From an uncultured Bacilli bacterium (GTDB taxonomy: Bacteria; Bacillota_I; Bacilli_A; RF39; UBA660), in NCBI GenBank assembly GCA_934087515.1, contig CAKOIY010000001.1, positions 3,308 to 67,307 on the forward strand: a DNA stretch of 64,000 nt, given 5' to 3'. Positions 10,427 through 59,252 of the stretch are shown here, in pieces (the stretch's first letter is position 1; the number at the start of each line of letters is the position of its first letter). The notes under the pieces are model-generated. The model searched no databases and was not told where the DNA came from. It was given only the letters and a program-made list of their open reading frames with translations. Position numbers and translations under genes: made by a program.

Positions 10427-10455
10427 TTGCAATTATATCGTTTTTGTGGTATAAT
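10427..10455 (+). promoter_or_regulatory. Sigma-A-type promoter (TTGCAA-17 nt-TGgTATAAT) for the downstream repeat-protein gene
   Basis: The -35 element TTGCAA (10427-10432), a 17-nt spacer and an extended -10 TGGTATAAT (10447-10455) are read directly. The element overlaps the track's proposed start codon at 10444. Confidence 0.55.
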
Positions 10456-10482
10456 ATGCGCGAATTAAGTGAGGTGTTTGAT

Positions 10483-14012: not shown

Positions 14013-14032
14013 TTGTATGGGTGGTGAATATA

Positions 14033-14935
14033 ATGAGCAATGAAGTTAAAAAATTAAGTGAAAAAGCTAGTGATGAAGATAAAGTTAGAATTGAAAAACT
14101 AATGGAATTACCTCTTAATGATAGTGAACGTGATGCTTCTATTAAGTTAATTGTTTTGGATTCTTTTGCTAAGTTAATGTATGATGATGAATTAAATATA
14201 GTTTTTGATGAGTCTGATAAGGCAAAGGATGCAAGAGATGCTATTGCTAATAGATTAGGTGTTGATTCTGATGAATTACAGATGATTGCTGATTATAAGA
14301 AGAAGAATAATGTTAAATGTACTTTGAATAGAAATGATGTTATAAAGAAGAATTCTGATCTTAATGAATTTATTGATAAGATGAGTGTTGCAGAGATGAA
14401 TTCTATACTTAATATGAAGGCATCTGGTAATTATGATGATAATATTTTGAATAATATTTCTAGTAGAATTGGTGCTTCTGCTTCTAAACTTGAAGAAATT
14501 GCTGTTGAAAAGAATAAAGGTCTTATGAGTGGTAAGAATAATGATAAATCTATGGAAAATGGTGAGTCTAAATCTTTAGATGAAAATAATAATAATAATA
14601 ATGACAAAGATAAAGATAAAGAAAAGGAAGTTACTTCTAGTTCTAGTGGGTCTAATGGCACTAATCTTGAAGAAAAAGATGATTCTTCAAAGACTAAGGT
14701 TTCTGCTGATTTAACTCCTGAAAAGAAGAAAAAACCTAATAGAATTACTACAGCAGGTGCTAAACTTATTGCTTCGATTAAAAATAATAAAGGTAAAGCT
14801 ATGCTTGGTATATTAGGTCTTGGTGCTGTTGCAGTTCTTGCTATTACTAATCCTGTTATGTTTTGGACTTTACTTGCTGCGGCTGGTATTGGTAAGATAT
14901 ATAAAGATTTTCAAGCTGGAGCAAAAGGTAGATAA
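14033..14935 (+). CDS. Hypothetical protein with Asn/Asp/Lys low-complexity region and C-terminal membrane hairpin
   Basis: The ORF has an RBS GGTGGTGA and ATG at 14033. An N-terminal helical region is followed by the low-complexity stretch ENNNNNNDKDKDKEKE. The C-terminus LGILGLGAVAVLAI..LLAAAGIG is hydrophobic. Confidence 0.45.
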   Translation: MSNEVKKLSEKASDEDKVRIEKLMELPLNDSERDASIKLIVLDSFAKLMYDDELNIVFDESDKAKDARDAIANRLGVDSDELQMIADYKKKNNVKCTLNRNDVIKKNSDLNEFIDKMSVAEMNSILNMKASGNYDDNILNNISSRIGASASKLEEIAVEKNKGLMSGKNNDKSMENGESKSLDENNNNNNDKDKDKEKEVTSSSSGSNGTNLEEKDDSSKTKVSADLTPEKKKKPNRITTAGAKLIASIKNNKGKAMLGILGLGAVAVLAITNPVMFWTLLAAAGIGKIYKDFQAGAKGR

Positions 14936-19008: not shown

Positions 19009-19018
19009 GAGGTAGAGT

Positions 19019-20707
19019 ATGAAAAAGAAAATTATATCGTTAGTTTTAGTATGTGCATTACTTATTACTATTTTACCTAGTGGTGTTAGTGCTCTTAGTA
19101 AGGTTAATCCTTCAGAGAAGAAGGAGGTTTCTTTAAAGAAAGTTAATGATAAGTCTTTAATTGTTAAAACTCCGACTGCTAAGCAAATTAGAAAGGCTGG
19201 TAGTGAACTTGATTTTTATAAACAAAGTTTTATTGAACAAGTTGAGGAGACTTATTCTCGATATGATTATGTAACTTATATTGATTCTGTTAGGAAGGCT
19301 TTTGAGAAGGCACATCAAGAGGCTATTGATACACTTAATAATCTTAGTTCTTTAGATGATTTGTTTTATGATTATGAGGAAGGTACTGTTTCTTTAGATG
19401 TTAATTTACCTTATGCTACTATGACTACTATTGGTGGTTGGGATTATGATTATGTTACTACTGATAATTATTATTTGACTTTGAAAAAACGTGGTCTTAA
19501 GGCTATAAATGATGCTTTTGATTGTTTTTATGAAGGGGATTTTAGTACTTATTATAATACTATAATTAATTCTTATCGTAGTGAGTATTTAGGATATGTA
19601 AGTAGTGCTAATGATTATTATTCACTTGCTAAAGGTTTTGCTAATATTGGTTTAGTTGGAGATTATAATAATTTTACATATGTTGATATTTCTTTTGATT
19701 TAGATAATTATAATGGTGAAGATGCTGAATCTATGTCTGGTTCTTGTCAATATGATGCTTATGGTTATTTTCCTGATTTTGAATATGTAGAGTTTTTAAA
19801 TAGTGTTGGTATTGCGTCTATTCCTTCTTATTCTCTTGGTCGTGTTATTTATTCTTTAGGAGAAGTTCAAGATACTAAAAATGCTTTTAGTGCATATATT
19901 AATAATTATGTATATGAACAACTTAAAGCTAGTGGTTATAAGGTTACTGATGAGATTATAGATATGGCTGATAAGACTCTTGATGATATTAATAATGGTT
20001 ATAATCCTGATACTATGTATACTAAGTATATTGATTTGATTGAAAAATTTGAAGATATGACTGGTGTTACTTATCAAAAACTTAGTTCTACTACTACATT
20101 TAAACTTGCTGCTGGTATTGATAAGTTATCTAAGAAGTATTTGGATAAAAAAGTTTATTCTAATGCTGGTTATAATACTAATTATAATCTATTAGATAAT
20201 GCTAGTAGTGCTATTAATGTTGTGTATGAGGTAGAAATACCTAGAAATTTCTTGGTTAAGCTTGAAAAACTTCTTAAGAAGACTCCAACTAGAGTTGTTG
20301 AACTTAGTAATGCCAAGAAGTCATATGCTAATAAGTTAAATACTTTTAAGAATAATAAAAAGTATAATCAAAAGAAAGTTGTTCCTATTGTTAATGAGGG
20401 AATTAGTAAAATAAATAAGGCTACTTCAGTTGATAGTGTTAAGAGTATATATAATACTTATTATAAGAAGGCTTTACTTACTATAAATAAATATAAGATA
20501 ACTACTTCAAAGACTGGTAAGGGTGTTATTACCAAGAGTAAAACTGTTAATTATGGTTCTAATGTTGTTATTACTATGACTCCTAGTAAGGGTTATAAAC
20601 TTAGTAAGGTTTATGTAGATGGTAAACGTGTTAGTGTTAAGAGTAAGTATACATTTAAGAATGTTACTTTGAATCATTCTATAAAGGCAGTTTTTGTTAA
20701 GAAGTAG
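19019..20707 (+). CDS. Secreted hypothetical protein with a C-terminal Listeria-Bacteroides (Flg_new/InlB B-repeat-like) domain
   Basis: A signal peptide is present. The C-terminal motif is GKGVITKSKTVNYGSNVVITMTPSKGYKLSKVYVDGKRVSV. Confidence 0.55.
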   Translation: MKKKIISLVLVCALLITILPSGVSALSKVNPSEKKEVSLKKVNDKSLIVKTPTAKQIRKAGSELDFYKQSFIEQVEETYSRYDYVTYIDSVRKAFEKAHQEAIDTLNNLSSLDDLFYDYEEGTVSLDVNLPYATMTTIGGWDYDYVTTDNYYLTLKKRGLKAINDAFDCFYEGDFSTYYNTIINSYRSEYLGYVSSANDYYSLAKGFANIGLVGDYNNFTYVDISFDLDNYNGEDAESMSGSCQYDAYGYFPDFEYVEFLNSVGIASIPSYSLGRVIYSLGEVQDTKNAFSAYINNYVYEQLKASGYKVTDEIIDMADKTLDDINNGYNPDTMYTKYIDLIEKFEDMTGVTYQKLSSTTTFKLAAGIDKLSKKYLDKKVYSNAGYNTNYNLLDNASSAINVVYEVEIPRNFLVKLEKLLKKTPTRVVELSNAKKSYANKLNTFKNNKKYNQKKVVPIVNEGISKINKATSVDSVKSIYNTYYKKALLTINKYKITTSKTGKGVITKSKTVNYGSNVVITMTPSKGYKLSKVYVDGKRVSVKSKYTFKNVTLNHSIKAVFVKK

Positions 20708-20788
20708 TACTAGTTATTAGAAAAACATTCTATAGGGTGTTTTTCTTTTTTTGTCTAAACATAAAAAAAATACTTAAACCAAGTATTT

Positions 20789-22273
20789 TTATATTACTAT
20801 AGCTATTAGATTGTTTGATCCTTTGTTTACTACTTTGGACATTGTTGTTTGAAATTTATATCTTACGTTTTCTGGCATCATTGATATTTTTGATTGGATT
20901 CCTTCTTGGACTATTTTGTCTAAGCTTCTTCCAAATATTTCGCTTGACCAGATACTGTTTGGATCACTATTGCTATCTTTCATTAGGTGTTCTATTAGTT
21001 CTTTGCTTTGGGCTTCGCTACCGATTATTGGTTCAAAGCTTGATTCTACATCTACTCTTATCATATGTATTGATGGTGCTGTTGCTTTTAGTTTTATTCC
21101 ATATCTTGATCCTTGTTTTGTTATTTCTGGTTTGTCTAATTTCATATCTTTTATAGTGGGATTTGCAACTCCGTATCCAGTTGTTTTTACCATTTTTAGA
21201 GCTTGTTCTAGTTCTTTATATTCTGTTTTTGTTTCTTTGTATTCTTGGAATATTTTCAAAAGATTTGTTTTGTTTGTTATGTCTATGTCAATCATTTCGT
21301 TTAATACTTTTTCGAATAGTTCTTGAGGTGCTTCTAATGTTATGGTTATGATTCCTGTTTTAGGATCTACTAAGGACATATAGGCATTTTTTATGTACTG
21401 GCAATTGTTGAAATGACTTATTATTCCATCAACATCACGTAATTTATCTACTTCAATTACACTTTCTTTTATTTTATCTATGTAAGCTTTTTTGACATAA
21501 TGATTTGGTTTTAGGATTCCAATCCATTCTGGTATATCGATGTTTACTTCTAATATAGGAAATTCATATAGAGCTTCTCTTAATATATTATTTATTTCTA
21601 TTTCATTCATATTTAGTACATCTATTGGTAGGACAGGTACTTTGTATTTTACTTTTAGTTCTTCTGTTAGTTTTTCTGTTTCTTTTGCTGTTGGTTTAGT
21701 TGTATTTAGTATTATTATATATGGTTTGTTTATTGAACTTAGTTCTAGTGCTATTTTTTCTTCTGCTTCAATATAGTCTTTTCTTGAGAATTCTCCGATA
21801 GTTCCATCTGTTGTAATCATTATTCCTATTGTTGAGTGGTCTCTTATTACTTTTTCTGTTCCTATTTCTGCGGCTTCAACGAATGGTATTTCATCTTTGT
21901 ACCAGGGGGTTTTTACCATTCTAGGGCCGTTTTCGTCTTCGTAGCCTTTGGCTTCATCAATTATGTATCCTACGCAGTCTACTAGTCTCATGTTACAAGT
22001 CATGTCATCTATTTTTATTTGGGCAACATTGTTGGGAACAAATTTGGGTTCTATAGTCATAATAGTTTTTCCTCCACTTGATTGTGGTATTTCATCTAGA
22101 GCTCTTTTTCTTTCGTATTCGTCTTCTATGTTGGGAACTATAAGTTCTTCTACTACTTTTTTGATAAAGGTTGATTTTCCAGTTCTTACTGCTCCAACTA
22201 CTCCTAGGTAAATGTCTCCGCCGGTACGATAGGCTATGTTTTTGATTATTTCTTGTTTATCCACATGCATCAC
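20789..22273 (-). CDS. spoIVA: Stage IV sporulation protein A (spore coat morphogenetic ATPase)
   Basis: The N-terminus ..IAYRTGGDIYLGVVGAVRTGKSTFIKK..PNIEDEYERKRALDELPQSSGGKTIMTIEPKFVPN..RLVDCVGY is near-identical in pattern to B. subtilis SpoIVA. The length is about 494 aa. Confidence 0.85.
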   Translation of the reverse strand: MMHVDKQEIIKNIAYRTGGDIYLGVVGAVRTGKSTFIKKVVEELIVPNIEDEYERKRALDEIPQSSGGKTIMTIEPKFVPNNVAQIKIDDMTCNMRLVDCVGYIIDEAKGYEDENGPRMVKTPWYKDEIPFVEAAEIGTEKVIRDHSTIGIMITTDGTIGEFSRKDYIEAEEKIALELSSINKPYIIILNTTKPTAKETEKLTEELKVKYKVPVLPIDVLNMNEIEINNILREALYEFPILEVNIDIPEWIGILKPNHYVKKAYIDKIKESVIEVDKLRDVDGIISHFNNCQYIKNAYMSLVDPKTGIITITLEAPQELFEKVLNEMIDIDITNKTNLLKIFQEYKETKTEYKELEQALKMVKTTGYGVANPTIKDMKLDKPEITKQGSRYGIKLKATAPSIHMIRVDVESSFEPIIGSEAQSKELIEHLMKDSNSDPNSIWSSEIFGRSLDKIVQEGIQSKISMMPENVRYKFQTTMSKVVNKGSNNLIAIVI

Positions 22274-34962: not shown

Positions 34963-35979
34963 ATGCAAACATTACAAATAAGAAATTCAACAGCAGAATT
35001 TTTGATATTTACAGGACAAAATAAAGAAAAGACAATAGAAGTGATTGTTGATGAAGAATCAGTTTGGCTTAGTCAAAAATTGATGGCCGAACTTTTCGGA
35101 ACAACAAGAAATAATATAACAATACATCTTTCTAATATTTTTGAAAAAGAATTAAGTGAGAATTCAGTATGTAAAGAATTTTTACATACTGCTAGAGATG
35201 GAAAAAATTATAAAACAAAATATTATAATTTAGATGTTATTATTGCTGTTGGATTTAAAGTTAATAGCAAAAGAGCAATAGAGTTTAGATTGTGGGCAAT
35301 CAATATTTTAAAACAATATTCTATAAAGGGGTATGTATTAGATAAAGAAAGACTTAAAAATGGAACTTTTTTAAATGAAAATTATTTTGATGAATTATTA
35401 CAAGAAATAAGAGAAATAAGAATTAGTGAAAGGAATTTTTATCAAAAGATTACCGATATTTACACAACAAGTTTAGATTATAATGTAGCTTCACCAATAA
35501 CAAAAGATTTTTTTAAAACAGTCCAAAATAAAATGCATTATGCTGTTCATGGGAATACGGCTGTGGAAATTATAGTGAATCGTGCAAATCATAAAAAAAC
35601 ACATATGGGATTAACAAATTGGAAAAATTCACCTAATGGTAAAATAATTGCATCTGATGTTATAGTTGCTAAAAATTATCTAACTAAAGAGGAATTAAAA
35701 TCTTTAGAAAGAATTGTTACAATGTATTTAGATTATGCAGAGGATCAAGCTGAAAGACATATTCCTATGACAATGGAAGACTGGAAAAGTAAGTTAGATG
35801 TATTTTTACAATTTAATGAAAGAGATGTACTTGATAATCCTGGTAGAGTATCCCATAAGGTAGCAGAAAGTTTTGCAATTTCTGAATTTGAAAAGTATAG
35901 AATTAACCAAGATAGATTATTTGAATCTGATTTTGATAAGTTTATGATTGAAATGGAAAATGATGATATCAAGTGCTAA
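34963..35979 (+). CDS. RhuM-family protein (Fic/DOC-associated putative DNA-binding virulence protein)
   Basis: The N-terminal region is ...WLSQKLMAELFGTTRNNITIHLSNIFEKELSENSVCKEFLHTARDGKNYKTKYYNLDVIIAVGFKVNSKRAIEFRLWAINILKQY. This is the RhuM signature. Confidence 0.75.
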   Translation: MQTLQIRNSTAEFLIFTGQNKEKTIEVIVDEESVWLSQKLMAELFGTTRNNITIHLSNIFEKELSENSVCKEFLHTARDGKNYKTKYYNLDVIIAVGFKVNSKRAIEFRLWAINILKQYSIKGYVLDKERLKNGTFLNENYFDELLQEIREIRISERNFYQKITDIYTTSLDYNVASPITKDFFKTVQNKMHYAVHGNTAVEIIVNRANHKKTHMGLTNWKNSPNGKIIASDVIVAKNYLTKEELKSLERIVTMYLDYAEDQAERHIPMTMEDWKSKLDVFLQFNERDVLDNPGRVSHKVAESFAISEFEKYRINQDRLFESDFDKFMIEMENDDIKC

Positions 35980-36121
35980 ATGGATATCATTCTCAGATTA
36001 TTGGATTTTGAAGTAAATGAAATAATTTCAAATACTGTTAGATTATAGATATTTTTATGTACTTTTTCCTTATACAAAGTTTATATTTTTGAATAGTATA
36101 AATTAGATAGGAGGATTTATA

Positions 36122-36463
36122 ATGTTTGAAAATATGAGTAATAGTCCATTTATGATGCCTAATCAAGAGGGGTTTATTGATATTGATAATAATCAAGGAA
36201 ATATTGATATTGATTTAAATCAAAGTCAAACTAGTAATATTAATAATGGCCCTATGATGGGTATGACTTCTCAACCTATAATTGAACCTATGAGAGAAAG
36301 AGTTGTTAATAGAACAATTGAACATGTTGTACCACATGTGTGTCCTGTTAGAACAAGAATAGTAAATCATCATGTGTTTAAACATACTTATAGTCCAAGT
36401 TATAGTTGTTGTGAAGAAAATGTTTGTGAAAATGTACAATGTGGTTCTTGTTGTAATTATTAG
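36122..36463 (+). CDS. CotD-like small His/Cys-rich spore coat protein
   Basis: The motif IEHVVPHVCPVRTRIVNHHVFKHTYSPSYSCCEEN...CCNY resembles B. subtilis CotD (VHPTHCCEHHTF..HIHP..NHQHFQHVHYFPHTF...CCDY), including the terminal CC-x-Y. Confidence 0.45.
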   Translation: MFENMSNSPFMMPNQEGFIDIDNNQGNIDIDLNQSQTSNINNGPMMGMTSQPIIEPMRERVVNRTIEHVVPHVCPVRTRIVNHHVFKHTYSPSYSCCEENVCENVQCGSCCNY

Positions 36464-36612
36464 TAATTGTTTTGATTGAATGACTTTGGTCATTCTTTTT
36501 TTGACTATATTAATTTTTGTATTTTGAATTAGTATAAATTTGTTGGTTTATTAATTGATAATTTTTGTGATATGTGTTATTTTATTTTTAGAGTAATATT
36601 TATATATAAGTA

Positions 36613-37380
36613 ATGTTGGAGTTGATGTTTGTGAATGTTAATCAAATTAAAGATGAGTTAATTAAACAAAAAAGTTCTAAGTTTAAGGGAAATATATATT
36701 ATTATTCTCAAATTAATTTTTCTTATAATTCAAATAAAATTGAGGGTAGTAGATTAACTAGTGAACAAACTGAAGCAATATTTGATACATCTTCATTTAT
36801 TTCTAAGGGTGATACTTTGATTGAACTGGATGATGTGATTGAATCTAGAAATCATTTTAAATTGTTTGATTATATACTTGATAATGTGGATGAATTACTA
36901 ACTAAAGATATGATAGTTGAAATGAATAAGATTTTAAAGAGAAATACTAGTGATGAGGAAAATCCTAGATATAATGTTGGTGGATTCAAAATTGTTCCAA
37001 ATATGATTGGAGCAGTTAATGTTGTTAACACTACTAGACCAGAAGATGTAGAAAATGAAATAATAGAGTTATTAGATGAATATAATTCTAAAACAGATAT
37101 TACTTTAGAAGATATAGTGGATTTTCATTATAGATTTGAAAGAATACATCCGTTTGGAGATGGAAATGGTCGTGTTGGACGAATTATAATGTTTAAAGAG
37201 TGTCTTAGAAATAATATTATGCCATTTATTGTACTTGATGATGATAAAATTTATTATTTAAGAGGTTTAAAAGAGTATAAAAATGATAAAATGTTTTTAA
37301 TTGATACTATTAGACATGAACAAGATATATATAAGGGTGTTTGTGAAATGTTGCTTTCTTTTGAAATTAAAGATTTTTAA
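36613..37380 (+). CDS. Fic-family protein (AMPylase/Doc-like)
   Basis: It has the canonical Fic motif HPFGDGNGRVGR. Confidence 0.8.
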   Translation: MLELMFVNVNQIKDELIKQKSSKFKGNIYYYSQINFSYNSNKIEGSRLTSEQTEAIFDTSSFISKGDTLIELDDVIESRNHFKLFDYILDNVDELLTKDMIVEMNKILKRNTSDEENPRYNVGGFKIVPNMIGAVNVVNTTRPEDVENEIIELLDEYNSKTDITLEDIVDFHYRFERIHPFGDGNGRVGRIIMFKECLRNNIMPFIVLDDDKIYYLRGLKEYKNDKMFLIDTIRHEQDIYKGVCEMLLSFEIKDF

Positions 37381-45826: not shown

Positions 45827-47956
45827 ATGGAAAAGAGGTTTAAGAGGGCATTTACTTTGGTTGAAATGTTAGTAGTTGTAGGAATTATTGCGGCTTTAAT
45901 GGTAACGGTTATTCCTATGGTTTCTAAGTATATAAAGGATGGAAAGAATGATTATAATGAGAAGCTTAAGTCTCAATTATTACTTTCTGGTAAGGATTAT
46001 TATAGTAATAATAAGGATAAGCTTCCTGTTAAAGTTGGTTTAAAGTATAAAAGTAAGGATTATGATGTTGTTTCTTTACCAGAGATGCAAAGTCAGAATT
46101 ATGTAAGTAATGATTTTGTTGATGCATATGGAAATAGTTGTAAGGAAAGTTTTGTTTATGTAAGGCAGAAGAATGATGCTAAAGAATATGATTATCATGC
46201 TTGTTTGAGATGTACTGATAAGAATGGTAAAATTATTAATTATAGTAATGATTTTGTTTGTAAAGGTAATAATTGGGGAGATGAGGTTGGTCCTGTTTGT
46301 TCTAATGATGCTAGTTATAATATTGGTGTTAGAAAGAAAAATGGTCATGTGTTTAATCCTAGTTCGGTTCTTTTAAGAGGTGTTAGAGATAGTTATGCTA
46401 CTAGTGGTGATAATAAAGGTAAGATAGTTGGGGCTTATGTTGAAGGAAAAGTTAAAGGTTTTCAAGTTTTTTTTCCTAGTAGTTATAGTTTTGATAATAT
46501 AATGGGTGTTAACTTTATAGAAAAGATTAATAAAGAATATTCAGAAAAAAATAGAAATGATGAGTATATTATAACTTTAACTGATGGTGTTCATACTTCT
46601 AGTAGTTGTGCTAAGTTTGTGATAGATAAAGAAAAACCTAGTTGTGTTTTTGATTTAAAGCAAAGTAAGGGTAATAAAACTTTGACTCTTAGTTCTAAGG
46701 ATAATTATAGTGATTCTATTAATATTAGTAAGCTTATTTCTTTGAAGGATAATGAAACTAGTGTAGAGGATAAAGGTATTAGAGTTTCTACTGTTTCTAA
46801 GAGTGTTTTAGGACTTAAAGATAGTATGTATTATGGTTATACTATGGATGAGGCTGGTAATAGTAATACTTGTTCTAAGAAAGTAAAAATAAAGATGTTT
46901 GATGGGGAAAAACCTTATTGTACTATTACTAATGATGTTGATAATAAATGGTATAGTTCTAAAGGTACATATAGAAGTAAGACTTTAAAGGCTGAGTGTT
47001 ATGTTGCAGGAGGTGCTAATAAAGCAAAAGTTGATTTGAAGAAAATTGGTGTAAGTAATGCAGTTGGTTCTGTTAGTGCTAAGAAAACTGATAATGATAA
47101 TCCTGATAATAAAGTTACTTTTGATATAGTGTTTACGCCTGCTAATAATAAGGCTGGTAATACAGTTGTTAGTTTGAATGAAGGTTTTGTTACAGATGAT
47201 GCCGGAACTACTAATGATAGTGTTAAGTCTTCAAATATTAAAGTTGATTCTATATCTCCTAGTATTAGTTATGCTCCTCAAACTTCTAAAGAAAGTGGAG
47301 GTTGGTATAAGGCTCCATTTAAACTTAAGTTAAGTTGTTTAGATAGTAATAGTGGTGTTTCTAGTTTTAAAGTTAATAATTCTAACTTTAGTTCTGGTAG
47401 TATAATTACTAGAAATAGTGCTGCTAATCCAGTTACTTATGCTTCTGTTTGTGTAGATAAAGCTGGTAATAGTGCTAGTGGTTCTAATAGTTATAAGGTT
47501 AAGGTTTATTCTGAAAATTCTATTTGTGGTATTAAGTCTTATGTAAAATGTAGACATAAAGATTGTGGGTGTGAAACTTATAAATATTGTACTAATGGAT
47601 GTAAAGTTTATAAGAAATGTAGTGCATATACTAATTGGTCATGTAAGAAAAAGACAAAGACTACTGGTTGTGTTGCTTATGGTATAGGTAAGAAATGTCC
47701 TTCTTGTTCACCTTATACAAAAACTACTAGTAAAAGAACTTGTGGTAAGTGTACTAATAAAATTTGTAAAAAAGTTGCTGGTGCTATTGTAACTATTAAA
47801 TATACTAGAAGTTATACTGATTGTACTCGTAGTTCTTATACATATAATTGTGGTTGCAAAACATATTATTATAAACAATGTGGTTGTAAGCAATATGTTT
47901 ATTGTGCTACTAAGAGATGTGGTGTTAAGTCATATGAGTCATGTTGGCATTATTAA
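45827..47956 (+). CDS. Giant modular type IV pilin-like protein (709 aa), paralogue 2, with an extremely Cys/Lys/Thr/Tyr-rich C-terminus
   Basis: The N-terminus MEKRFKRA|FTLVEMLVVVGIIAAL is a class-III signal. The conserved head includes YDYHACLRC. Repeat units begin [DE]K.P..C. The last ~150 aa contain 27 Cys. An RBS AGAGGAG lies upstream. Confidence 0.75.
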   Translation: MEKRFKRAFTLVEMLVVVGIIAALMVTVIPMVSKYIKDGKNDYNEKLKSQLLLSGKDYYSNNKDKLPVKVGLKYKSKDYDVVSLPEMQSQNYVSNDFVDAYGNSCKESFVYVRQKNDAKEYDYHACLRCTDKNGKIINYSNDFVCKGNNWGDEVGPVCSNDASYNIGVRKKNGHVFNPSSVLLRGVRDSYATSGDNKGKIVGAYVEGKVKGFQVFFPSSYSFDNIMGVNFIEKINKEYSEKNRNDEYIITLTDGVHTSSSCAKFVIDKEKPSCVFDLKQSKGNKTLTLSSKDNYSDSINISKLISLKDNETSVEDKGIRVSTVSKSVLGLKDSMYYGYTMDEAGNSNTCSKKVKIKMFDGEKPYCTITNDVDNKWYSSKGTYRSKTLKAECYVAGGANKAKVDLKKIGVSNAVGSVSAKKTDNDNPDNKVTFDIVFTPANNKAGNTVVSLNEGFVTDDAGTTNDSVKSSNIKVDSISPSISYAPQTSKESGGWYKAPFKLKLSCLDSNSGVSSFKVNNSNFSSGSIITRNSAANPVTYASVCVDKAGNSASGSNSYKVKVYSENSICGIKSYVKCRHKDCGCETYKYCTNGCKVYKKCSAYTNWSCKKKTKTTGCVAYGIGKKCPSCSPYTKTTSKRTCGKCTNKICKKVAGAIVTIKYTRSYTDCTRSSYTYNCGCKTYYYKQCGCKQYVYCATKRCGVKSYESCWHY

Positions 47957-48049: not shown

Positions 48050-49732
48050 ATGTTTAATAGAAAAGGTTTTACTTTAGTAGAAGTTTTGGCTGTTGTTATT
48101 ATACTTTCTGTTTTATCTATTATGGTTATACCTAATGTTAGTGAATATGTTGCACAGGGTAAGGATGAATATAATAAAAGTCTTAAGAAAACACTTATTT
48201 TGGCGGGAAAGAATTTTTATTCTGATAACAGGATGAGAATTCCTAAACCAGTTGGTGTTGTTACTGATTTTGTTACCGCTAATGAACTTGCAAGTAAGAA
48301 TTATCTTACTGGTAGTTTTGTTGATTCTGATAAAAATGATTGTAAGAGTAAGAGTTATGTAGTGGCGGTTAATGAAATTTCTGATGTTAAGTATCATGCT
48401 TGTTTAACTTGTGGGGATAAGAATTATAGTTCTGATGATGAGTATTGTGATGTAATGGTTCGTGATATTGATTCTTCTAATCCATCTAATCCTAGTGATA
48501 GTGGTAAGAGTAAGGTTACTTGTAGTGTTAGTGCTAAAGATACTGATGATGGTGCTAGTGTTACTATTGATGCGAATAGTAGTAAAGAAAAAATTAATAA
48601 GATTATTTACTATAATACTGATACTAAGAAGTCTACAAGTTTATTAACTGATTCTGAATATAGTACTTCTATTAAAAAAACGATAACTATTAGTGATTTT
48701 GGAAAATTTAAGATTTATGTATCTAGTAGTGATGGTGTTAGAACTGATTGTGATGGTTCGGTTATTGATAATAGTTTTTCTGCTAATTTTAAAGTTGATA
48801 TGTATTTAGTTAATAAGTCAGAATATGATTCTCATAAAAATACTGAATATACTAAGACTGAGCTTAATAAACTTGAAAAATATGATGGTACTACTTGGAA
48901 AAATGCTTATGTATATGCTAAGCTTACTTATAAGAAGAGTAGATTTTCTAGTGTTGAGTTTGATGGTAATAATTTAAATAATAAATTTATTTGGCTTGAT
49001 GCAGAGGGTGCTAAAGATTATAAGATTACTGCTGTTGATAAGAAAAATGGTACTCAAACAGTTTCTTTAAGCACTAAGCTTGATAGAACTCCACCTACAG
49101 TTGCTTTTTCTAGAACTCCTGGTGATGGTTGGACTAATCAAGCTGTTACAGTTACTTCTACTCCTAGTGATGTTTCTTCTGGTATTGAAGGATTGTACTA
49201 TAGTACAAATAATGAAGATTGGAGTAAAGTTTCTTATAGTGGTTCTTTTGTTAAAGTATGGGAGAGAACTAATACTTCTAAAACTATGTATGTAAAGGCT
49301 AAGGATAATGTTGGGCTTTATTCTGATGTTAAAAGTTCAAATATTTTGATTGATGTGGTGCCTCCTGTTATGTATAAGCATTGTTTATATAAGGTTGCAA
49401 GTAAGAAATGGTATTTTAGGTATTATTTTAGTGATTCTGGTGGATCTGGGTATAGTGGTTATAAATGGGGTTATTGTTACAGAATTTGTCCTAAGTGTCC
49501 TAGTAGTTATATGTGTTCTTATAGATCTGCTGATAGTAAAGCTGCTAGTTCTAATACTTGGTATCATGGTAGTTATAAGGAAACTTCTTATCAAATTGCT
49601 CCGACTAGAGGTGCTAGGACTATTGGTTCTACTACTAGGTTATATTTTAAAGATAATGCTGGTAATGTTGCTACTGGAAGTTATACTGATACTTGGTATT
49701 ATGGTGGGGGTAGTAGTCCAGGTAGTTGTTAA
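48050..49732 (+). CDS. Giant modular type IV pilin-like protein (about 560 aa), paralogue 3
   Basis: The N-terminus MFNRKG|FTLVEVLAVVIILSVL is a class-III signal. The conserved head includes YHACLTCGDKNYSSDDEYC, and there is an Ig-like repeat TPPTVAFSRTPGDGWTNQAVTVTSTPSDVSSGIEGLYYS. An RBS GGGAGG sits 8 nt before ATG at 48050. The track's start at 48023 is probably overextended. Confidence 0.75.
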   Translation: MFNRKGFTLVEVLAVVIILSVLSIMVIPNVSEYVAQGKDEYNKSLKKTLILAGKNFYSDNRMRIPKPVGVVTDFVTANELASKNYLTGSFVDSDKNDCKSKSYVVAVNEISDVKYHACLTCGDKNYSSDDEYCDVMVRDIDSSNPSNPSDSGKSKVTCSVSAKDTDDGASVTIDANSSKEKINKIIYYNTDTKKSTSLLTDSEYSTSIKKTITISDFGKFKIYVSSSDGVRTDCDGSVIDNSFSANFKVDMYLVNKSEYDSHKNTEYTKTELNKLEKYDGTTWKNAYVYAKLTYKKSRFSSVEFDGNNLNNKFIWLDAEGAKDYKITAVDKKNGTQTVSLSTKLDRTPPTVAFSRTPGDGWTNQAVTVTSTPSDVSSGIEGLYYSTNNEDWSKVSYSGSFVKVWERTNTSKTMYVKAKDNVGLYSDVKSSNILIDVVPPVMYKHCLYKVASKKWYFRYYFSDSGGSGYSGYKWGYCYRICPKCPSSYMCSYRSADSKAASSNTWYHGSYKETSYQIAPTRGARTIGSTTRLYFKDNAGNVATGSYTDTWYYGGGSSPGSC

Positions 49733-53754: not shown

Positions 53755-54201
53755 TTATTTTGCTTCTTTTATGAATCCAGCTGATTCTATTTTTGATTTT
53801 ATTCTAGCTTTAGTTTGTTCTCCTTCTATTTTGATTAGGCTTTCTTCTCCTTTATCGAAAAATAAGACTGTTGGAGTTCCATTTATACTAAATAGTTCAT
53901 CATAAATTTCTTGTTCTTTTTCTGATAGATTGCTTATGTTTAGACTATAGGCTTCTATATTATTTTCACTTAATACACTTATGAAGTTTGGAGTAAATGC
54001 TTTGCAGTGTTCACAGTCTGTTTGTTTTATGTAAAGAATGAAGTTATCTTTGTTTTTGATTTTTGATGTTACTTCGTTTAATGTTATGTCGTGGATGTAT
54101 TTTTCTTTGTCTTGTGAGAATACTAAAGCAATTATTATTAAGGCTATTATTAGTAATATAAATAGGAATAGCCATTTATGTTTTTTTATCATTTTTAACA
54201 C
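53755..54201 (-). CDS. Membrane-anchored thioredoxin-fold thiol-disulfide oxidoreductase
   Basis: It has an N-terminal TM helix and a CEHC (CxxC) active site in thioredoxin-like context. Confidence 0.6.
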   Translation of the reverse strand: MLKMIKKHKWLFLFILLIIALIIIALVFSQDKEKYIHDITLNEVTSKIKNKDNFILYIKQTDCEHCKAFTPNFISVLSENNIEAYSLNISNLSEKEQEIYDELFSINGTPTVLFFDKGEESLIKIEGEQTKARIKSKIESAGFIKEAK

Positions 54202-54311: not shown

Positions 54312-54857
54312 ATGAAAGATACTAAGTTTTATAGGGTTGAGACTTTGGGTATGGTGTTTGATGAGAATATGGAGTTATGTGTTCCTAATGTTATTGGTAA
54401 GAAAAGTAATTTTTTTGAGGGTAAGGATTTTAAATATGATAGTATGCCAATGTTTGCGTATTTATCTGATGATGTGTTAAGGGATGTTGTTACGGATGAT
54501 ATTGTTAAGTTTGAATCTAATTTTATACTTCCAGATGGGGTATCTGTTTCTAAGAGTATAAAGGATGATAGTTTGGATGATATTGTTGCTATTTCAATTA
54601 AGCCTGTTACTGTTGATGCTATGTTTGGTTGGGTTTTTGAACTTGATAGGGAAGATGTTAAGAGATATATTACAGAGGTTGATAAGTTAAAGAAAATTAG
54701 TATTAGGAGATATGGTGTTAGAAATAAAGTTAAATCTATAAGAGAGGATGAATATCTTAAGGGGTTAATGCTTGATAATATTAATAGTTTTAAGAATAAT
54801 TGTTTTCTTATAAAAAGGGAAATGAATTCTGATTTTAAGTTTGTTAAGAGAAAATAA
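54312..54857 (+). CDS. Hypothetical protein
   Basis: This is a clean ORF. I recognise no family for it. Confidence 0.35.
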   Translation: MKDTKFYRVETLGMVFDENMELCVPNVIGKKSNFFEGKDFKYDSMPMFAYLSDDVLRDVVTDDIVKFESNFILPDGVSVSKSIKDDSLDDIVAISIKPVTVDAMFGWVFELDREDVKRYITEVDKLKKISIRRYGVRNKVKSIREDEYLKGLMLDNINSFKNNCFLIKREMNSDFKFVKRK

Positions 54858-54882: not shown

Positions 54883-56583
54883 TTAGTTGCCTTGTATGTT
54901 ATTATCGTTATATATATTTTTTAATAGGTCGTCGGTGTAGTTTTCTTTGTTTTGGGTATTGTTATCTATTCTTAAGGAATTAAAGACATTGTCATCGAAT
55001 AGATTTCCGTCATTATTGTTTGTAAATATGTTTTGCTGTGGTTCTTGGTTGTTGTTTATTTGTGGTTTATTTATTTGGTTTGAGTTTTCTAGTTGTTCAA
55101 TGTTTTGATTTATGTTTTCGTTAGGAATATTTATTATGTTTTGATTTGTTTGATTATTTTGGTTTTCTGGTGTTTCTTGTTGTATGTTATTTTGATATGT
55201 GTTGTTTATTTGTTCTTGTGGATTGTTATTTAATATTTCTTGGTTTACATTGTTATTCTGATTGTTTTCTGTTATTGTTTGGTTGTTGTTTATTATTTCT
55301 GGATTTGTATATATCATGTTGTTATTCATTAGTGGATTGTTTTCATCTGATGTGTCTATTCCTATGGTTTTATCTACAAAATCTTCGGAGATGTCATCGT
55401 AGTCGTCGTAATCTACTAATCTAAATACTTCTTTTAAATCTGTTATTCCTTCTAGGACTTTTATTAATCCATCTTGGAATAGGGTTTTTACATTTTTTTT
55501 GTATATTAAATGTTTTAGTTCTTCACGATCGATTCCTTTATTGATAGCTTCTCTTATTTCTTCATTTATCATTAATACTTCTTGAAGGGCAATTCTTCCT
55601 GTGTAACCGTTATGACAGTGTTCACAATTTCCGGCTTCATATATTGTGTCTATATTTATTCCTAGTGCTTTTTTGAATAGTATTTTTTCTGTTTCGTTAG
55701 CAGGTCTTTGAGTTCTACAACGTGGACATAGTTTTTTTGCTAGGGTTTGCGAGATTATTCCCTTTAGTGATGATGATAAGAGGTATCTTTCAACATCCAT
55801 ATCGATAAGTCTTTCGATGGTTGTTAGGGAATTGTTTGTATGTAGTGTTGATAGTACTAGATGTCCTGTTATAGATGCACGTATTGCTATTTTTGCTGTT
55901 TCACTATCACGAATTTCTCCGATTAGAATGATGTTAGGGTCTTGTCTTAGAATTGAACGAAGTACTGTAGCAAAGTCTAATCCAATTTCAGAGTTTACTT
56001 GTACTTGGTTAAGTCCTTCGATACTCATTTCTACGGGATCTTCTACTGTTATGATGTTTGTTTCTTCTTTGTTTAGTTTTTGAAGCATTGAATATACTGT
56101 TGTAGATTTACCAGATCCAGTTGCTCCGGTTATTAGGATGATACCGTTAGGACTGTTTAACATTTCCATAATTATTTTGTAGTTATCTCCGGTGAAACCT
56201 AGGTATTCTATTCCTTGTAAACTCATTGAATAGTCTAGGATTCTGATAACTATTTTTTCTCCAAAGCTTGTTGGTAAGGCAGATACACGAAGATCTAAAT
56301 CTTTTCCTTCGATAACACTTTTTATAGCACCATCTTGTGGTAGTCTTGATTCTGTGATATTCATTCCTGCAAGTAGTTTTACTCTAGTTGTAAGATTTCT
56401 TTTGTATTTGTTATCTATTATGGCATAATCACGAAGTTCTCCATCTATTCTTATTCTAATTTTTAGGTATTTTTCTGCTGGATCAAAATGAATATCACTA
56501 GCATTTCTTACTACTGAATCAATTATAATATCATTTACTATGTCTACTATGGGAGTGGTAGTAAAATCAAATTCTCGCATCAT
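54883..56583 (-). CDS. ComGA/PilB/GspE-family secretion ATPase with a ~175-aa Asn/Gln-rich C-terminal extension
   Basis: It has Walker A GATGSGKST, the Asp box/Walker B and the His box TLHTN. The tetracysteine motif is CPRC...CEHC. An N/Q low-complexity tail (NNQTITENNQNNNVNQEILNNNPQEQ...) follows. Confidence 0.8.
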   Translation of the reverse strand: MMREFDFTTTPIVDIVNDIIIDSVVRNASDIHFDPAEKYLKIRIRIDGELRDYAIIDNKYKRNLTTRVKLLAGMNITESRLPQDGAIKSVIEGKDLDLRVSALPTSFGEKIVIRILDYSMSLQGIEYLGFTGDNYKIIMEMLNSPNGIILITGATGSGKSTTVYSMLQKLNKEETNIITVEDPVEMSIEGLNQVQVNSEIGLDFATVLRSILRQDPNIILIGEIRDSETAKIAIRASITGHLVLSTLHTNNSLTTIERLIDMDVERYLLSSSLKGIISQTLAKKLCPRCRTQRPANETEKILFKKALGINIDTIYEAGNCEHCHNGYTGRIALQEVLMINEEIREAINKGIDREELKHLIYKKNVKTLFQDGLIKVLEGITDLKEVFRLVDYDDYDDISEDFVDKTIGIDTSDENNPLMNNNMIYTNPEIINNNQTITENNQNNNVNQEILNNNPQEQINNTYQNNIQQETPENQNNQTNQNIINIPNENINQNIEQLENSNQINKPQINNNQEPQQNIFTNNNDGNLFDDNVFNSLRIDNNTQNKENYTDDLLKNIYNDNNIQGN

Positions 56584-56704
56584 AAAAATCGTTCCCCTTT
56601 ATTCTAATTTGTAAAATTCATAGTTATTTTATTTTTACACTAGAATTTATTCTAAAAGTATTATATAATAAATTTGTAAAATAAGCAAGTAGAAGGTGAG
56701 TAAT

Positions 56705-58585
56705 ATGAGAAGGAAATTAAAAAATAATAAGGGTTTTGCTATGGCTGAGTTATTGGCTGTTTCTATGGTAATATTGCTTCTTTTTTCTATTCTTTTTTCT
56801 AATTATTTACCACTTGTTGCAGAATATGAGAATAGGCTTAGTTATAATGATGTAACTGCGGAGTATGCTGGTTATTATGTTAGAAAGATGTATTTGACTG
56901 ATGATAATAAATTGTCTAGTTCTACTAAAAATTTTATTAATGATGGTATTGGTAATAAGGCTTTTTATAAGGTTTATGATAAGAGTAGTAAAATTAATAA
57001 TGTTTGTTCTTGGTATTCTAATTTGCAAGCTGATGATAAAAAAGTTGCTGCTAGGAATTATTGTAATAATATTTTAGAGGAGTATGGTGTTGAAGAAATA
57101 ATTATTACTAATTATAGTATGACTAATGTTAAGAGTAAGTATACTGAATCTTCTGGAAAACTTTATAAGTATATAAAGTATTTACCTGAATATAAGAATA
57201 CTATTTATAAGGGTGATAATGATTTATATAGGATTATTTTAAAAACTAAAGATGGTTATGCTACTACTCCGATTGATACTGATTATTATACTCCTGGTAG
57301 TTGTTTTGTTGGTAGAAGTGTTTCTGGTGGCATTGAAATTACTAAATATAATATGTCTGGTAGTGATTGTGGCTCTAGTGTTACTATAAGAAAAGATAAG
57401 AAACTTACTATGAAGAATAGTGCTGGTAAGAGTATAACTGGTAAGGTTGTTTCTATTGGAAATAGTGCTTTTAAGGATCTTGAAGTTACTTCTATTAATT
57501 TAAATAGTATGGTAAAGAGTATTGGTGCTAGTGCATTTGAAGGTTCTAAACTTGAGAGTGATAGTATTAATTTGACTGGTGTTACTAGTATTGGAGATAG
57601 AGCTTTTAAAAATACTCAAATTAGTAGTATTGATATACCTTCTAGGGTTACAAAAGTTGGAAAAGAAGCATTTGCTAATAATAGTAAGCTTACTTCAATT
57701 AAGATTAATAATAGTGTTGTTAGTGAAGGGGAATTTATGAAATCTGGTGATAATAGTGTTATTAGTTATATTAATCTTGGAAGTGTTACTAAAATAAGTA
57801 AAAATATGTTTTATAACTTTAAGTTTTCTAGTGATAGTGCTATAGTAATGTCAAATGTTACTAATATTGATGAAAGTGCTTTTGCAAGTGATGCTATTCA
57901 AAAAATAAATAATATCTCTATTAGTAAAGTTACTAGTGTTGGTAATAAGGCTTTTTATAATTTAGATATTAAGAATTTGGTTTTAGGTAATATTAGTAGT
58001 ATAGGTGATAAGGCATTTGCTTTAAGTAGTGGTAGTAGTAATAGTAATAGTTTACCTAAAGTTGATTTGAGTTTTGTTACTGTTTTAGGAAATAATGCTT
58101 TTGAAAATAGAAAGATTGATGAATTAAATCTTAGTGGTTCTAGTATTGCTTCTATTTCTAACTATGCTTTTAAATCTTGTGATATTTCTAGTGTTACTTT
58201 TTCTGATAAGATTACTAGTGTTGGAGAAGGTAGTTTTGAAGGAAATAATTTTAATAAAATTGATTTACCTAGTTCTTTAACTAATATTGGGGTTAATGCT
58301 TTTAAGGAAAACTCTAATATTACTAGTTTTGATTTACCAGCTTCTTTAAATGTTATTGGAAATGGTGCTTTTGATAGTTGGAGTAAACTTGAAACTATTA
58401 ATAATAATTCTACTAAATTTAATGATTATGATAATTGGTGTATGGTTGTTGCTAGTGGTGATACTAGTTGTAAAGCTGAAAAGAGTGATACTGGTTATGC
58501 TATAGGTATTGGTGATAGAAGTATTAATGTAGTTAATAGTAATAGTAATAAAACTTCTGAGAATGGGGGTAATAGTAATGAATAA
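56705..58585 (+). CDS. Pseudopilin-like protein with BspA-type leucine-rich repeat domain
   Basis: The N-terminus MRRKLKNNKG|FAMAELLAVSMVILLL has a class-III signal with Glu at +5. It is followed by 12 or more ~22-25-aa repeats of the type (I/V)xSIGxxAFxxxxLxSIxxP. Confidence 0.7.
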   Translation: MRRKLKNNKGFAMAELLAVSMVILLLFSILFSNYLPLVAEYENRLSYNDVTAEYAGYYVRKMYLTDDNKLSSSTKNFINDGIGNKAFYKVYDKSSKINNVCSWYSNLQADDKKVAARNYCNNILEEYGVEEIIITNYSMTNVKSKYTESSGKLYKYIKYLPEYKNTIYKGDNDLYRIILKTKDGYATTPIDTDYYTPGSCFVGRSVSGGIEITKYNMSGSDCGSSVTIRKDKKLTMKNSAGKSITGKVVSIGNSAFKDLEVTSINLNSMVKSIGASAFEGSKLESDSINLTGVTSIGDRAFKNTQISSIDIPSRVTKVGKEAFANNSKLTSIKINNSVVSEGEFMKSGDNSVISYINLGSVTKISKNMFYNFKFSSDSAIVMSNVTNIDESAFASDAIQKINNISISKVTSVGNKAFYNLDIKNLVLGNISSIGDKAFALSSGSSNSNSLPKVDLSFVTVLGNNAFENRKIDELNLSGSSIASISNYAFKSCDISSVTFSDKITSVGEGSFEGNNFNKIDLPSSLTNIGVNAFKENSNITSFDLPASLNVIGNGAFDSWSKLETINNNSTKFNDYDNWCMVVASGDTSCKAEKSDTGYAIGIGDRSINVVNSNSNKTSENGGNSNE

Positions 58586-59252
58586 TAAGGGTATGACTAT
58601 TGTTGAACTTATTGTAACTTTTTCTCTTTTACTTGTTATTGTAGTTGGTATGTTTAATTTGATAACTGATGTTAAGCTTGAACTTGAGAATAAGCAAATA
58701 GGGAAGGATTTTACTGAGTATTCTTCTACTATAGGGAATAAGATACAATATGATTTTTTAAATAGTAAGATTGGTTCTATTGCTTTTAAGAATAGTGGTA
58801 ATGAATGGAGTTGTGTAAATAGATCCGGTCCCTGTGTAAGTGTTCCTAGTGGTGGTTATATGTTTGGTAACAAAAGTATAACTTTTGATGAGCTTAATAG
58901 TATGTGTAAGGATATTACTCCTTGTGTTGTTTATTCTTATAAGAATGGTAATAATGATGATTTTAGAGTTATTGGTCTTAATATAGAGCCTAGTAGCTCT
59001 GGTGCTTTAGCTAAATATGGTATATATTATAATGGTGTTTTTGAAGCTATTCCTGATCAAGATTATGTTGAGATTAAGAATGTTATTAATGTTAGTGATT
59101 CTGATGAAGAAGAAGATGTTGTTGCTAAGAAACCAGAGGCTAGATATGAGAATGATTTATTTGTTATTGATTTTCCTTTTTATTTAGTTGATAGTAATAA
59201 GAATTATGGTTTTAAAATTGTTTATTCTTTTGATACTAAAGAAAATAAATAA
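58578..59252 (+). CDS. Pseudopilin-like protein (about 225 aa)
   Basis: The N-terminus MNNKG|MTIVELIVTFSLLLVIVVGMF has a class-III signal. Its start overlaps the upstream gene's stop by 8 nt. Confidence 0.6.
   Translation: MNNKGMTIVELIVTFSLLLVIVVGMFNLITDVKLELENKQIGKDFTEYSSTIGNKIQYDFLNSKIGSIAFKNSGNEWSCVNRSGPCVSVPSGGYMFGNKSITFDELNSMCKDITPCVVYSYKNGNNDDFRVIGLNIEPSSSGALAKYGIYYNGVFEAIPDQDYVEIKNVINVSDSDEEEDVVAKKPEARYENDLFVIDFPFYLVDSNKNYGFKIVYSFDTKENK

Follow-up and report, generated by a model that had tools for sequence, protein, structure and literature searches.

Introduction

Type IV filament systems are built around four core components (Pelicic 2023, PMC10191384), and modular pilins as well as tip-located complexes of minor pilins have been described among their subunits (PMC8179133, PMC10191384). 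Streptococcus sanguinis has two modular minor pilins, PilB, which carries a vWA module, and PilC, which carries a lectin module (PMC8179133; PMC9934059). Leucine-rich repeats (LRRs) have also been recorded on pilins: Dataset S1 of Raynaud et al. 2021 (PMC8179133) contains 18 single and 6 double LRR_5 cases of the combination IPR012902-IPR026906, where IPR026906 is the BspA-type LRR region, and the LRR_5 extra domain is listed there without a clear function. We found no characterisation of an LRR-bearing pilin in the literature. Here we describe a locus at positions 54883–59252 of a 64-kb stretch of DNA from an uncultured Bacilli bacterium (the window; all coordinates are window positions), in which a minus-strand gene for a GspE/PilB-family ATPase is divergent from two plus-strand genes. 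Both plus-strand genes encode type IV prepilin signals, and the first encodes BspA-type LRRs as well.

The locus is predicted to encode a type IV filament system with modular pilins that falls outside both the Com and the type IVa pilus classes. It probably represents the ATPase and pilin half of a minimal, Com-like type IV filament of spore-forming, uncultured gut Bacilli, which would display an LRR adhesin. Its novelty is below what a first-pass annotation, made by a model from the DNA letters, had implied, because pilin-BspA-LRR architectures were already counted in Raynaud et al. 2021.

Two putative pilins, one with an LRR module

The three open reading frames (ORFs) of the divergent locus are all present as the first-pass annotation had described them. 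The first plus-strand gene (56705–58585) encodes a 626-residue protein, hereafter pilin1, with a class III signal, a pilin module, an LRR_5 module and a short tail. Its N-terminus reads MRRKLKNNKG/FAMAELLAV, where the slash marks the predicted cleavage site; the 10-residue leader (56705–56734) would be removed after Gly10, as judged from the conserved site residues, which places a Glu at +5 of the mature protein. The signal KG/FAMAELLAV with its Glu+5 had been recognised at first pass, and the length is now set at 626 residues from the ATG at 56705, the best start, which has the ribosome-binding site GAAGGTGAG ahead of it. Across the pilin1 homologues the residue at -1 is Gly, with Ala in a few (L013, P0007 and P0009; L and P numbers denote loci and family members, respectively), while Glu+5 is invariant; Phe+1 is invariant in alignment A1 and nearly so in A4 and A5.

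The pilin module (residues 11–235; 56735–57409) is predicted to consist of a long N-terminal helix and an α/β globular part containing the conserved pair Cys101–Cys120. It is followed by 13–14 BspA-type repeats (residues 240–570; 57422–58414), where at least 12 had been proposed; 13 are clear and one is degenerate, with a spacing of 21–28 residues over residues ~245–570, and the region matches LRR_5 with an E-value of 2.7e-53 (179.7 bits against a cut-off of 27.7). The last 56 residues, with the pair Cys579–Cys589, and the stop codon occupy 58415–58585. An AF2 (AlphaFold2) model of medium confidence, with a predicted local distance difference test score (pLDDT) of 72 and built from 11 sequences, places a helix at residues 2–61, an α/β region to about residue 190, a small β unit and a solenoid at residues 240–565. 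The pLDDT of the α/β region is 70–88 over residues 60–140 and falls below 50 over residues 566–626, and the C-terminal tail is accordingly modelled as disordered.

The protein thus combines an N-terminal pilin module with a class III signal, as indicated by the motif, the predicted helix and the existence of basal members that are the module alone, and an additional domain that is not specific to pilus biology. That the gene product is a genuine pilin-LRR fusion is supported by the conserved cleavage motif, by synteny of pilin1 with the ATPase in ~20 species-level genomes and by the neighbouring pilC-pilD pair in relatives. The description of its N-terminus as ComGC-like was loose, since the faint matches are to the N-termini of ComGD, ComGE and ComGF and all lie below cut-off.

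The second pilin gene (58578–59252, +) encodes 224 residues, hereafter pilin2, beginning MNNKG/MTIVELIV, with a MNNKG leader, Glu+5 and four Cys at 79, 86, 110 and 116. The KG/MTIVELIV signal and the four Cys were correctly noted at first pass, and the start is moved from 58563 to 58578 because the homologues all begin MNNKG. With this start the two pilin genes overlap by 8 nt, the stop codon of the upstream one included, which suggests that their translation is coupled. The cleavage site, with Gly at -1 and Glu+5, is kept in every pilin2 homologue, and the predicted fold of the protein resembles that of a GspJ/PilW-like minor pilin. Both subunits hence carry a class III signal by motif, conserved in all homologues, and profile models are weak: in NCBIfam both families match only the N-termini of ComGD/GE/GF, with E-values of 1e-3 to 3e-6 and far below cut-offs, and profile searches of both families against PDB sequences gave only a faint N-terminal match to Geobacter PilA-N. 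When the two pilin families were compared profile to profile, only the N-terminal 41 residues aligned.

The two pilin genes are separated from the ATPase gene by a divergent intergenic region of 121 nt (56584–56704), presumed to hold promoters for both transcription units. The first-pass annotation had rightly seen a shared divergent spacer; its figure of 112 nt came from counting from a GTG at 56696.

An assembly-type ATPase with a variable tail

The minus-strand gene (54883–56583) encodes a 566-residue extension/assembly ATPase, assigned by Pfam T2SSE, NCBIfam and solved structures. Residues 10–388 match Pfam T2SSE with an E-value of 1.3e-122. The NCBIfam scores are 474 bits for GspE, 455 for PilB, 263.5 for ComGA and 177 for PilT, all under the equivalog cut-offs, and solved GspE/PilB/PilF structures score ~340 bits against ~120 for PilT. 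The ATPase core (residues 1–395; 55399–56583) comprises an N2 domain and a catalytic C-terminal domain with a Walker A motif at residue 153, a His box at residue 244 and a tetracysteine CxxC...CxxC from residue 286. The protein begins with the N2 domain and so lacks the N1 domain of GspE/PilB, as ComGA does. The ATPase is found unchanged on 10 metagenome contigs from the human gut, Hadza samples included. Between the window and strain L038 the core is 99.7% identical, with a ratio of nonsynonymous to synonymous substitution rates (dN/dS) of 0.03. By its sequence the protein is therefore an assembly-type enzyme of the hexameric family with intact catalytic motifs, under strong purifying selection, and it provides the extension ATPase of the GspE/PilB family that a type IV filament has. 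A PilT-type retraction ATPase was rejected on the ~120 bits versus ~340 bits for assembly ATPases.

The C-terminal tail (residues 396–566, 171 residues; 54886–55398) is a low-complexity region rich in Asn and Gln, which make up 43% of it as opposed to 8% of the core. Among relatives the tail is 32–301 residues long with 7–47% Asn+Gln, and strain-level indels in it give ATPases of 566, 575 and 593 residues. Two short motifs are kept amid this variation. The first, LFDDNVFNSLR at residues 528–538 (54970–55002), is retained as LFDDN[IV]FNSLR in seven further species-level loci (L007–L013) within hypervariable surroundings, with degenerate forms in L014–L019. The second, YTDDLLKNI near the C-terminus at residues 549–557 (54913–54939), follows the pattern YT[DE].L[LI]..I in L007–L012, L014–L019 and L036. 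Because the tail varies in length and composition and yet keeps these motifs, it is most likely a disordered or flexible tether with two docking peptides. The first-pass term prion-like holds for the composition, an N/Q-rich low-complexity region; that composition is not conserved, and the idea that the tail functions as a prion domain was rejected, conservation being confined to the two motifs.

A canonical comG operon was likewise considered and rejected. The ATPase reaches 263.5 bits against the 300-bit cut-off of the ComGA equivalog (NF041000), and in place of ComGC and the ComGD–GG set there are two pilins at the locus in every relative. This bears out the earlier view of the locus as a non-canonical type IV filament locus.

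A predicted split of the gene cluster

We scanned ORFs of at least 150 residues across the window with Pfam. None of them matched T2SSF (PilC), Peptidase_A24 (PilD), PilN/O or PilT, in agreement with the first-pass observation that platform and peptidase genes are missing from the locus, and the sole PilM-related signal in the window was a weak PilM_2 match on FtsA. Neither a platform protein nor a prepilin peptidase was thus found within the window and its flanks, and the PilM/N/O and PilT proteins of a type IVa pilus are missing from both the window and the compact cluster of locus L054.

A scan of species-representative genomes for the ATPase returned 31 loci, nearly all in uncultured metagenome-assembled genomes (MAGs) that bear the labels Bacilli, Tenericutes, Mycoplasmatota or Erysipelotrichaceae. 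The order of ATPase, divergent from pilin1-pilin2-ylbJ-Lon-C/PDZ gene, is found in L007–L019, L027, L032 and L054, the last with an ATPase 65% identical to that of the window, and the three-gene set without an adjacent pilC-pilD pair occurs in at least 13 species-level genomes. In CAKORJ01 the three genes lie on a contig of 706 kb. In more distant relatives (L020, L021 and L046–L054) a pilC-pilD pair lies immediately beside the ATPase and converges on it. In L044, a member of another species (24% GC; its DUF6512 protein is 39% identical to that of the window), the pilC-pilD pair is isolated in a housekeeping region, with yqfQ beside it as in L046–L054. PilD is always paired with pilC in the relatives. 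The window thus appears to hold the ATPase-pilin half of a cluster whose two parts adjoin in some relatives and lie apart in others, and the split would explain the missing platform and peptidase, because the pilC-pilD pair of relatives adjoins the same ATPase and pilin pair.

Homologues of the lineage-type PilC are numerous (6379 of 8000 scored candidates at E ≤ 1e-40); among the 120 matches listed, nearly all are 67–76% identical to the L020 PilC and 454–710 residues long. In those of P0110, P0129 and P0215 the platform domains are preceded by an additional membrane segment at the N-terminus and by a charged helical region. This N-terminal extension is a candidate docking partner of the ATPase tail motifs. 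As a separate observation, the lineage PilC has 600–700 residues compared with the usual ~400, with N-terminal hydrophobic helices and a long Lys/Glu-rich stretch before T2SSF; examples lie at L020 2765–4057, L021 12327–13631, L044 10001–12052 and L054 10001–11809, always with pilD next and often with yqfQ ahead.

Two genes on the other side of the ATPase deserve mention. Directly downstream of and convergent with it, 54312–54857 (+) encodes a 181-residue protein with no Pfam or NCBIfam match; it occupies the position of pilD-pilC in distant relatives, and L011 has a 40%-identical homologue at this position. Two genes from the ATPase, 53755–54201 (-) encodes a membrane-anchored thioredoxin-fold protein with weak matches to PedC/BrcD-type disulfide isomerases, which could form disulfides in the Cys-rich pilins; no counterpart stands beside the ATPase in the other-species loci L007–L037.

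Module exchange in the pilin1 family and divergence between strains

When residues 1–233 of the LRR pilin were used in an exhaustive search (E ≤ 0.001), the pilin1 family grew to at least 388 sequence clusters; a word-indexed search with the pilin module had given only 10 matches, mostly fragments. Among the 150 matches listed, the alignment starts within the first eight residues in all but P0360 (residue 26). Distant or basal members are the pilin module alone (167–220 residues; the L054 orthologue has 167), with a basal form of about 170–180 residues, and nearer members have 500–1180 residues. LRR_5 was found on 40 of 70 long family members, and other long members carry ALK_LTK_GRD, Flg_new_2 (InlB B-repeat), Peptidase_S11 (D-Ala-D-Ala carboxypeptidase), DUF285, F5/8-C, CBM_4_9 or DUF6273. 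In L027, L029 and L032 the module is on the second pilin instead of the first. The end module thus appears to be exchangeable across the lineage and is most often LRR_5. Individual cases are the second pilin of L032 (7288–8832), which carries an ALK/LTK glycine-rich domain (E=3e-44), the first pilin of L019 (8544–9884), which carries DUF6273, and one pilin1 family member with Peptidase_S11. Pfam N_methyl at E ≤ 1e-4 detected none of the 70 long members, so the family would largely escape an N_methyl-based census.

Selection was compared between the window and one near-identical strain, L038, whose metallo-β-lactamase (MBL)-fold protein is identical, and all values are for this single strain pair. 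Whereas flanking genes have dN/dS values of 0.05–0.24, residues 1–60 of the LRR pilin show no amino-acid change (dN = 0), residues 61–235 have a dN/dS of 1.48 at ~81% identity, the LRR region 0.80 at ~81% identity and the last 56 residues 1.64; the value for the globular part of pilin2 is 0.48. A frozen assembly helix with fast-changing surface domains is the pattern that would be expected of an exposed, assembling pilin, and it argues against a dead system. A surface adhesin exposed to selection by immunity, phages or ligands would also be expected to diversify in its exposed domains.

Other pilin-like genes and features of the window

A motif scan found the class III motif in five pilin-like genes only among the real genes of the window; relaxed scans also picked one to three overlapping or antisense ORFs that are evidently non-coding. 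The three pilin-like genes outside the locus, at 5139–7193, 45827–47956 and 48050–49732 (all +), encode large proteins of 684, 709 and 560 residues with class III signals. These giant pilins have in common a major-pilin-like N-terminal region of ~130 residues (FTLVEML...), with OmpL47-type/Ig-like matches towards the C-terminus, and two of them have Ala instead of Gly at -1 (NRA/F, KRA/F). They sit among housekeeping genes (efp, rpsU/yqeY, mraZ). Cooperation between them and the locus had been proposed at first pass, and the one observation in its favour is that the ATPase of L029 has a pil569-like pilin next to it.

A promoter and terminator scan gave 20 promoter-like sites where 31 are expected and zero terminators; the one sigma-70-like match in the divergent spacer (56617–56646, +) is weak and at chance level. 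Neighbouring genes identified with Pfam belong to housekeeping and sporulation functions and include the dcw cluster, ffh, ftsY, ftsA, ftsZ, spoIVA, spoIIIAH-like and ylbJ-like genes and murC. Nearly all window genes are on the plus strand. The GC skew, (G-C)/(G+C), is extremely high: with few exceptions the 2-kb bins have values between +0.27 and +0.51, the GC content being 25–33%, and the single low-skew bin (20001–22000; 0.095) coincides with the minus-strand spoIVA.

Three neighbouring plus-strand paralogues without a family match (10444–12087, 12397–13710 and 14021–14935) share the repeated segment …DVRQADYEINNIL.RLRKQG..ANL.DLA.FIE.KK…, with a hydrophobic segment at the C-terminus of at least two of them. 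Further candidate surface proteins are encoded at 16405–20707 (+), an 867-residue subtilase with three Big_2 domains and then a 562-residue InlB B-repeat protein. The row of housekeeping genes is broken at 34963–37380 (+) by RhuM-family and Fic-family genes, which may form a small islet of mobile or defence genes. In strain L038 further Fic genes have inserted beside murC and the MBL-fold gene; in strain L041 an integrase/Mob_Pre insertion lies behind the Germane-domain (GerM-like) gene that itself follows spoIIIAH.

Discussion

If the locus works as half of a filament system, its prepilins would insert into the membrane and be cleaved after Gly10 (LRR pilin) and Gly5 (pilin2) by a PilD encoded elsewhere in the genome. 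The ATPase, docked on PilC, would then drive the pilins out of the membrane. The two pilins may form a priming or tip complex that would carry the LRR module at the far end of a filament or of a short pseudopilus; there the module could bind a protein or glycan ligand on the host, on mucus or on other microbes.

Several results weigh against this interpretation. Neither pilC nor pilD is present in the 64-kb window or in the adjoining sequence, of which ~10 kb were covered beyond the 3' end and ~4 kb beyond the 5' end. A small major pilin was not found, all five pilin-like proteins of the window being large. Pfam N_methyl has no match on the LRR pilin, and on pilin2 its E-value is 0.0036, below cut-off. 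A fold search with the LRR pilin returned LRR/solenoid matches only, because the LRR module dominates such matches, and the pilin fold is taken from a model of medium confidence. Finally, the dN/dS values from one strain pair could reflect recombination or relaxed constraint instead of positive selection.

We weighed other explanations of the locus. A short pseudopilus (endopilus), in which a few subunits would push or hold LRR or enzyme modules across the peptidoglycan, is unlikely. It would fit with the lack of a major pilin at the locus, the presence of two pilins only in the basal clusters and the resemblance of pilin2 to the type II secretion system (T2SS) tip subunit GspJ, as well as with the enzymes among the grafted modules (Peptidase_S11) and with window scans and L054 in which no retraction ATPase was seen. 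However, the three giant pilins, with their major-pilin-like FTLVEML N-termini, could build a filament, and no secreted-substrate genes are linked to the locus.

We also regard it as unlikely that the locus belongs to a competence (Com) pilus, with the ATPase as ComGA, the pilins as Com minor pilins, DNA capture as the function and the LRRs as an accessory. The lack of an N1 domain, the near-full coverage of the ComGA model at 263.5 bits and the faint pilin matches to ComGD/GE/GF are what this explanation would predict, and the machinery of the relatives is limited to ATPase, platform and peptidase, as in the Com pilus (PMC10191384). But the ComGA score is below the 300-bit cut-off and the GspE/PilB models score much higher; the tetracysteine subdomain, at residues 286–323, lies beyond the 267-position ComGA model, which aligns with residues 18–283. 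In addition, no orthologous locus has a ComGC-sized major pilin or a five-pilin set, the grafted modules are of adhesin, lectin and enzyme types and not DNA-binding, and the window has no comE or comF genes.

A decaying remnant, in which assembly was lost after pilC-pilD left and the LRR protein is an uncleaved, signal-anchored surface protein, would account for the absence of pilC and pilD from the 64 kb and flanks, for the high dN/dS of the pilin globular domains (as relaxed constraint) and for the failure of N_methyl models on the LRR pilin, but it is very improbable given the intact motifs and dN/dS of 0.03 of the ATPase core, the unchanged leader and assembly helix (pilin residues 1–60) between strains, the Gly-1 and Glu+5 kept across the family, the retention, in at least 13 species-level genomes, of the three genes with no pilC-pilD beside them, the relocation rather than loss of pilC-pilD in another lineage member (L044), the intact ORFs and the ATPase that is identical in 10 metagenome contigs.

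We accordingly favour the half of a minimal, Com-like filament with LRR display. A more far-reaching version, that the lineage has a distinct, ultra-minimal type IV filament with five dedicated genes, in which the pilins are display scaffolds and the tail motifs and PilC extension replace an alignment subcomplex, is doubtful. The compact set of L054 consists of pilC with the N-terminal membrane/coiled-coil extension, pilD, the N1-less ATPase with a putative docking motif in its tail and the two pilins. Were this version true, a five-gene filament would be simpler than the eight-component Com pilus, and one or both pilins would be a swappable, hypervariable scaffold that displays binding modules or enzymes.

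Modular pilins are a recognised yet barely tested means of making sticky filaments, and the locus is a real but largely expected case of this route, in a lineage-specific variant. What it contributes is a family of at least 388 clusters, so far confined to uncultured gut Bacilli and missed by standard pilin signatures, in which a fixed chromosomal locus has undergone repeated swaps of the end module, with diversification centred on the exposed domains. These features suggest that abundant, uncultured, small-genome bacteria of the human gut use the predicted proteins in colonisation or in contact between cells, and the very small machinery of the relatives could serve as a model for minimal type IV filament assembly.

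Comparison with known systems

The Com pilus and the lineage both have a minimal machinery, which consists of an ATPase, a platform and a peptidase and has no alignment subcomplex (PMC10191384). The ATPase is N1-less in both, and both pilins here are faintly like ComGD/GE/GF at the N-terminus. The Com pilus differs in that our ATPase is under the ComGA cut-off and has a zinc-finger subdomain of PilB/GspE type, that there are two pilins instead of five and no ComGC, and that adhesin modules are grafted. The gene order is also different, with pilC-pilD converging on the ATPase and the ATPase diverging from the pilins.

The PilB and PilC pilins of S. sanguinis likewise belong to a monoderm host and combine a small class III pilin module with a bulky binding domain foreign to pili; a tip location is proposed for them and they have a small partner minor pilin. 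Here the binding domain is a BspA-type LRR solenoid and not a vWA or lectin module, and the PilM/N/O and PilT proteins present in S. sanguinis are missing from the window. The genes are moreover split between loci, and the pilin family lies outside the IPR012902/N_methyl signature.

In the tip complexes GspK-GspI-GspJ/PilVWX of the T2SS and the type IVa pilus, and in CofB of the type IVb pilus of enterotoxigenic Escherichia coli (ETEC), the capping subunit is without Glu+5 (PMC10191384), whereas both pilins here keep it. Compared with GspIJK/PilVWX, only two subunits are linked to the machinery here, and the likeness in sequence is limited to the N-terminal helix.

BspA/PcpA/TpLRR-type proteins are lipoproteins or have choline-binding or wall anchors. 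The LRR_5 surface proteins of this type from gut and oral bacteria (PDB 4fs7, 4gt6, 4h09, 4cp6 and 6mlx) have the same repeat family and fold as our protein, in which the solenoid is instead attached to a type IV pilin.

Closest in architecture are the IPR012902-IPR026906 proteins, which have the same domain combination, but were found through a recognisable N_methyl motif and none of which has been studied. To that set the pilin1 family of the window adds conserved synteny, a census of module swaps and diversification at the strain level.

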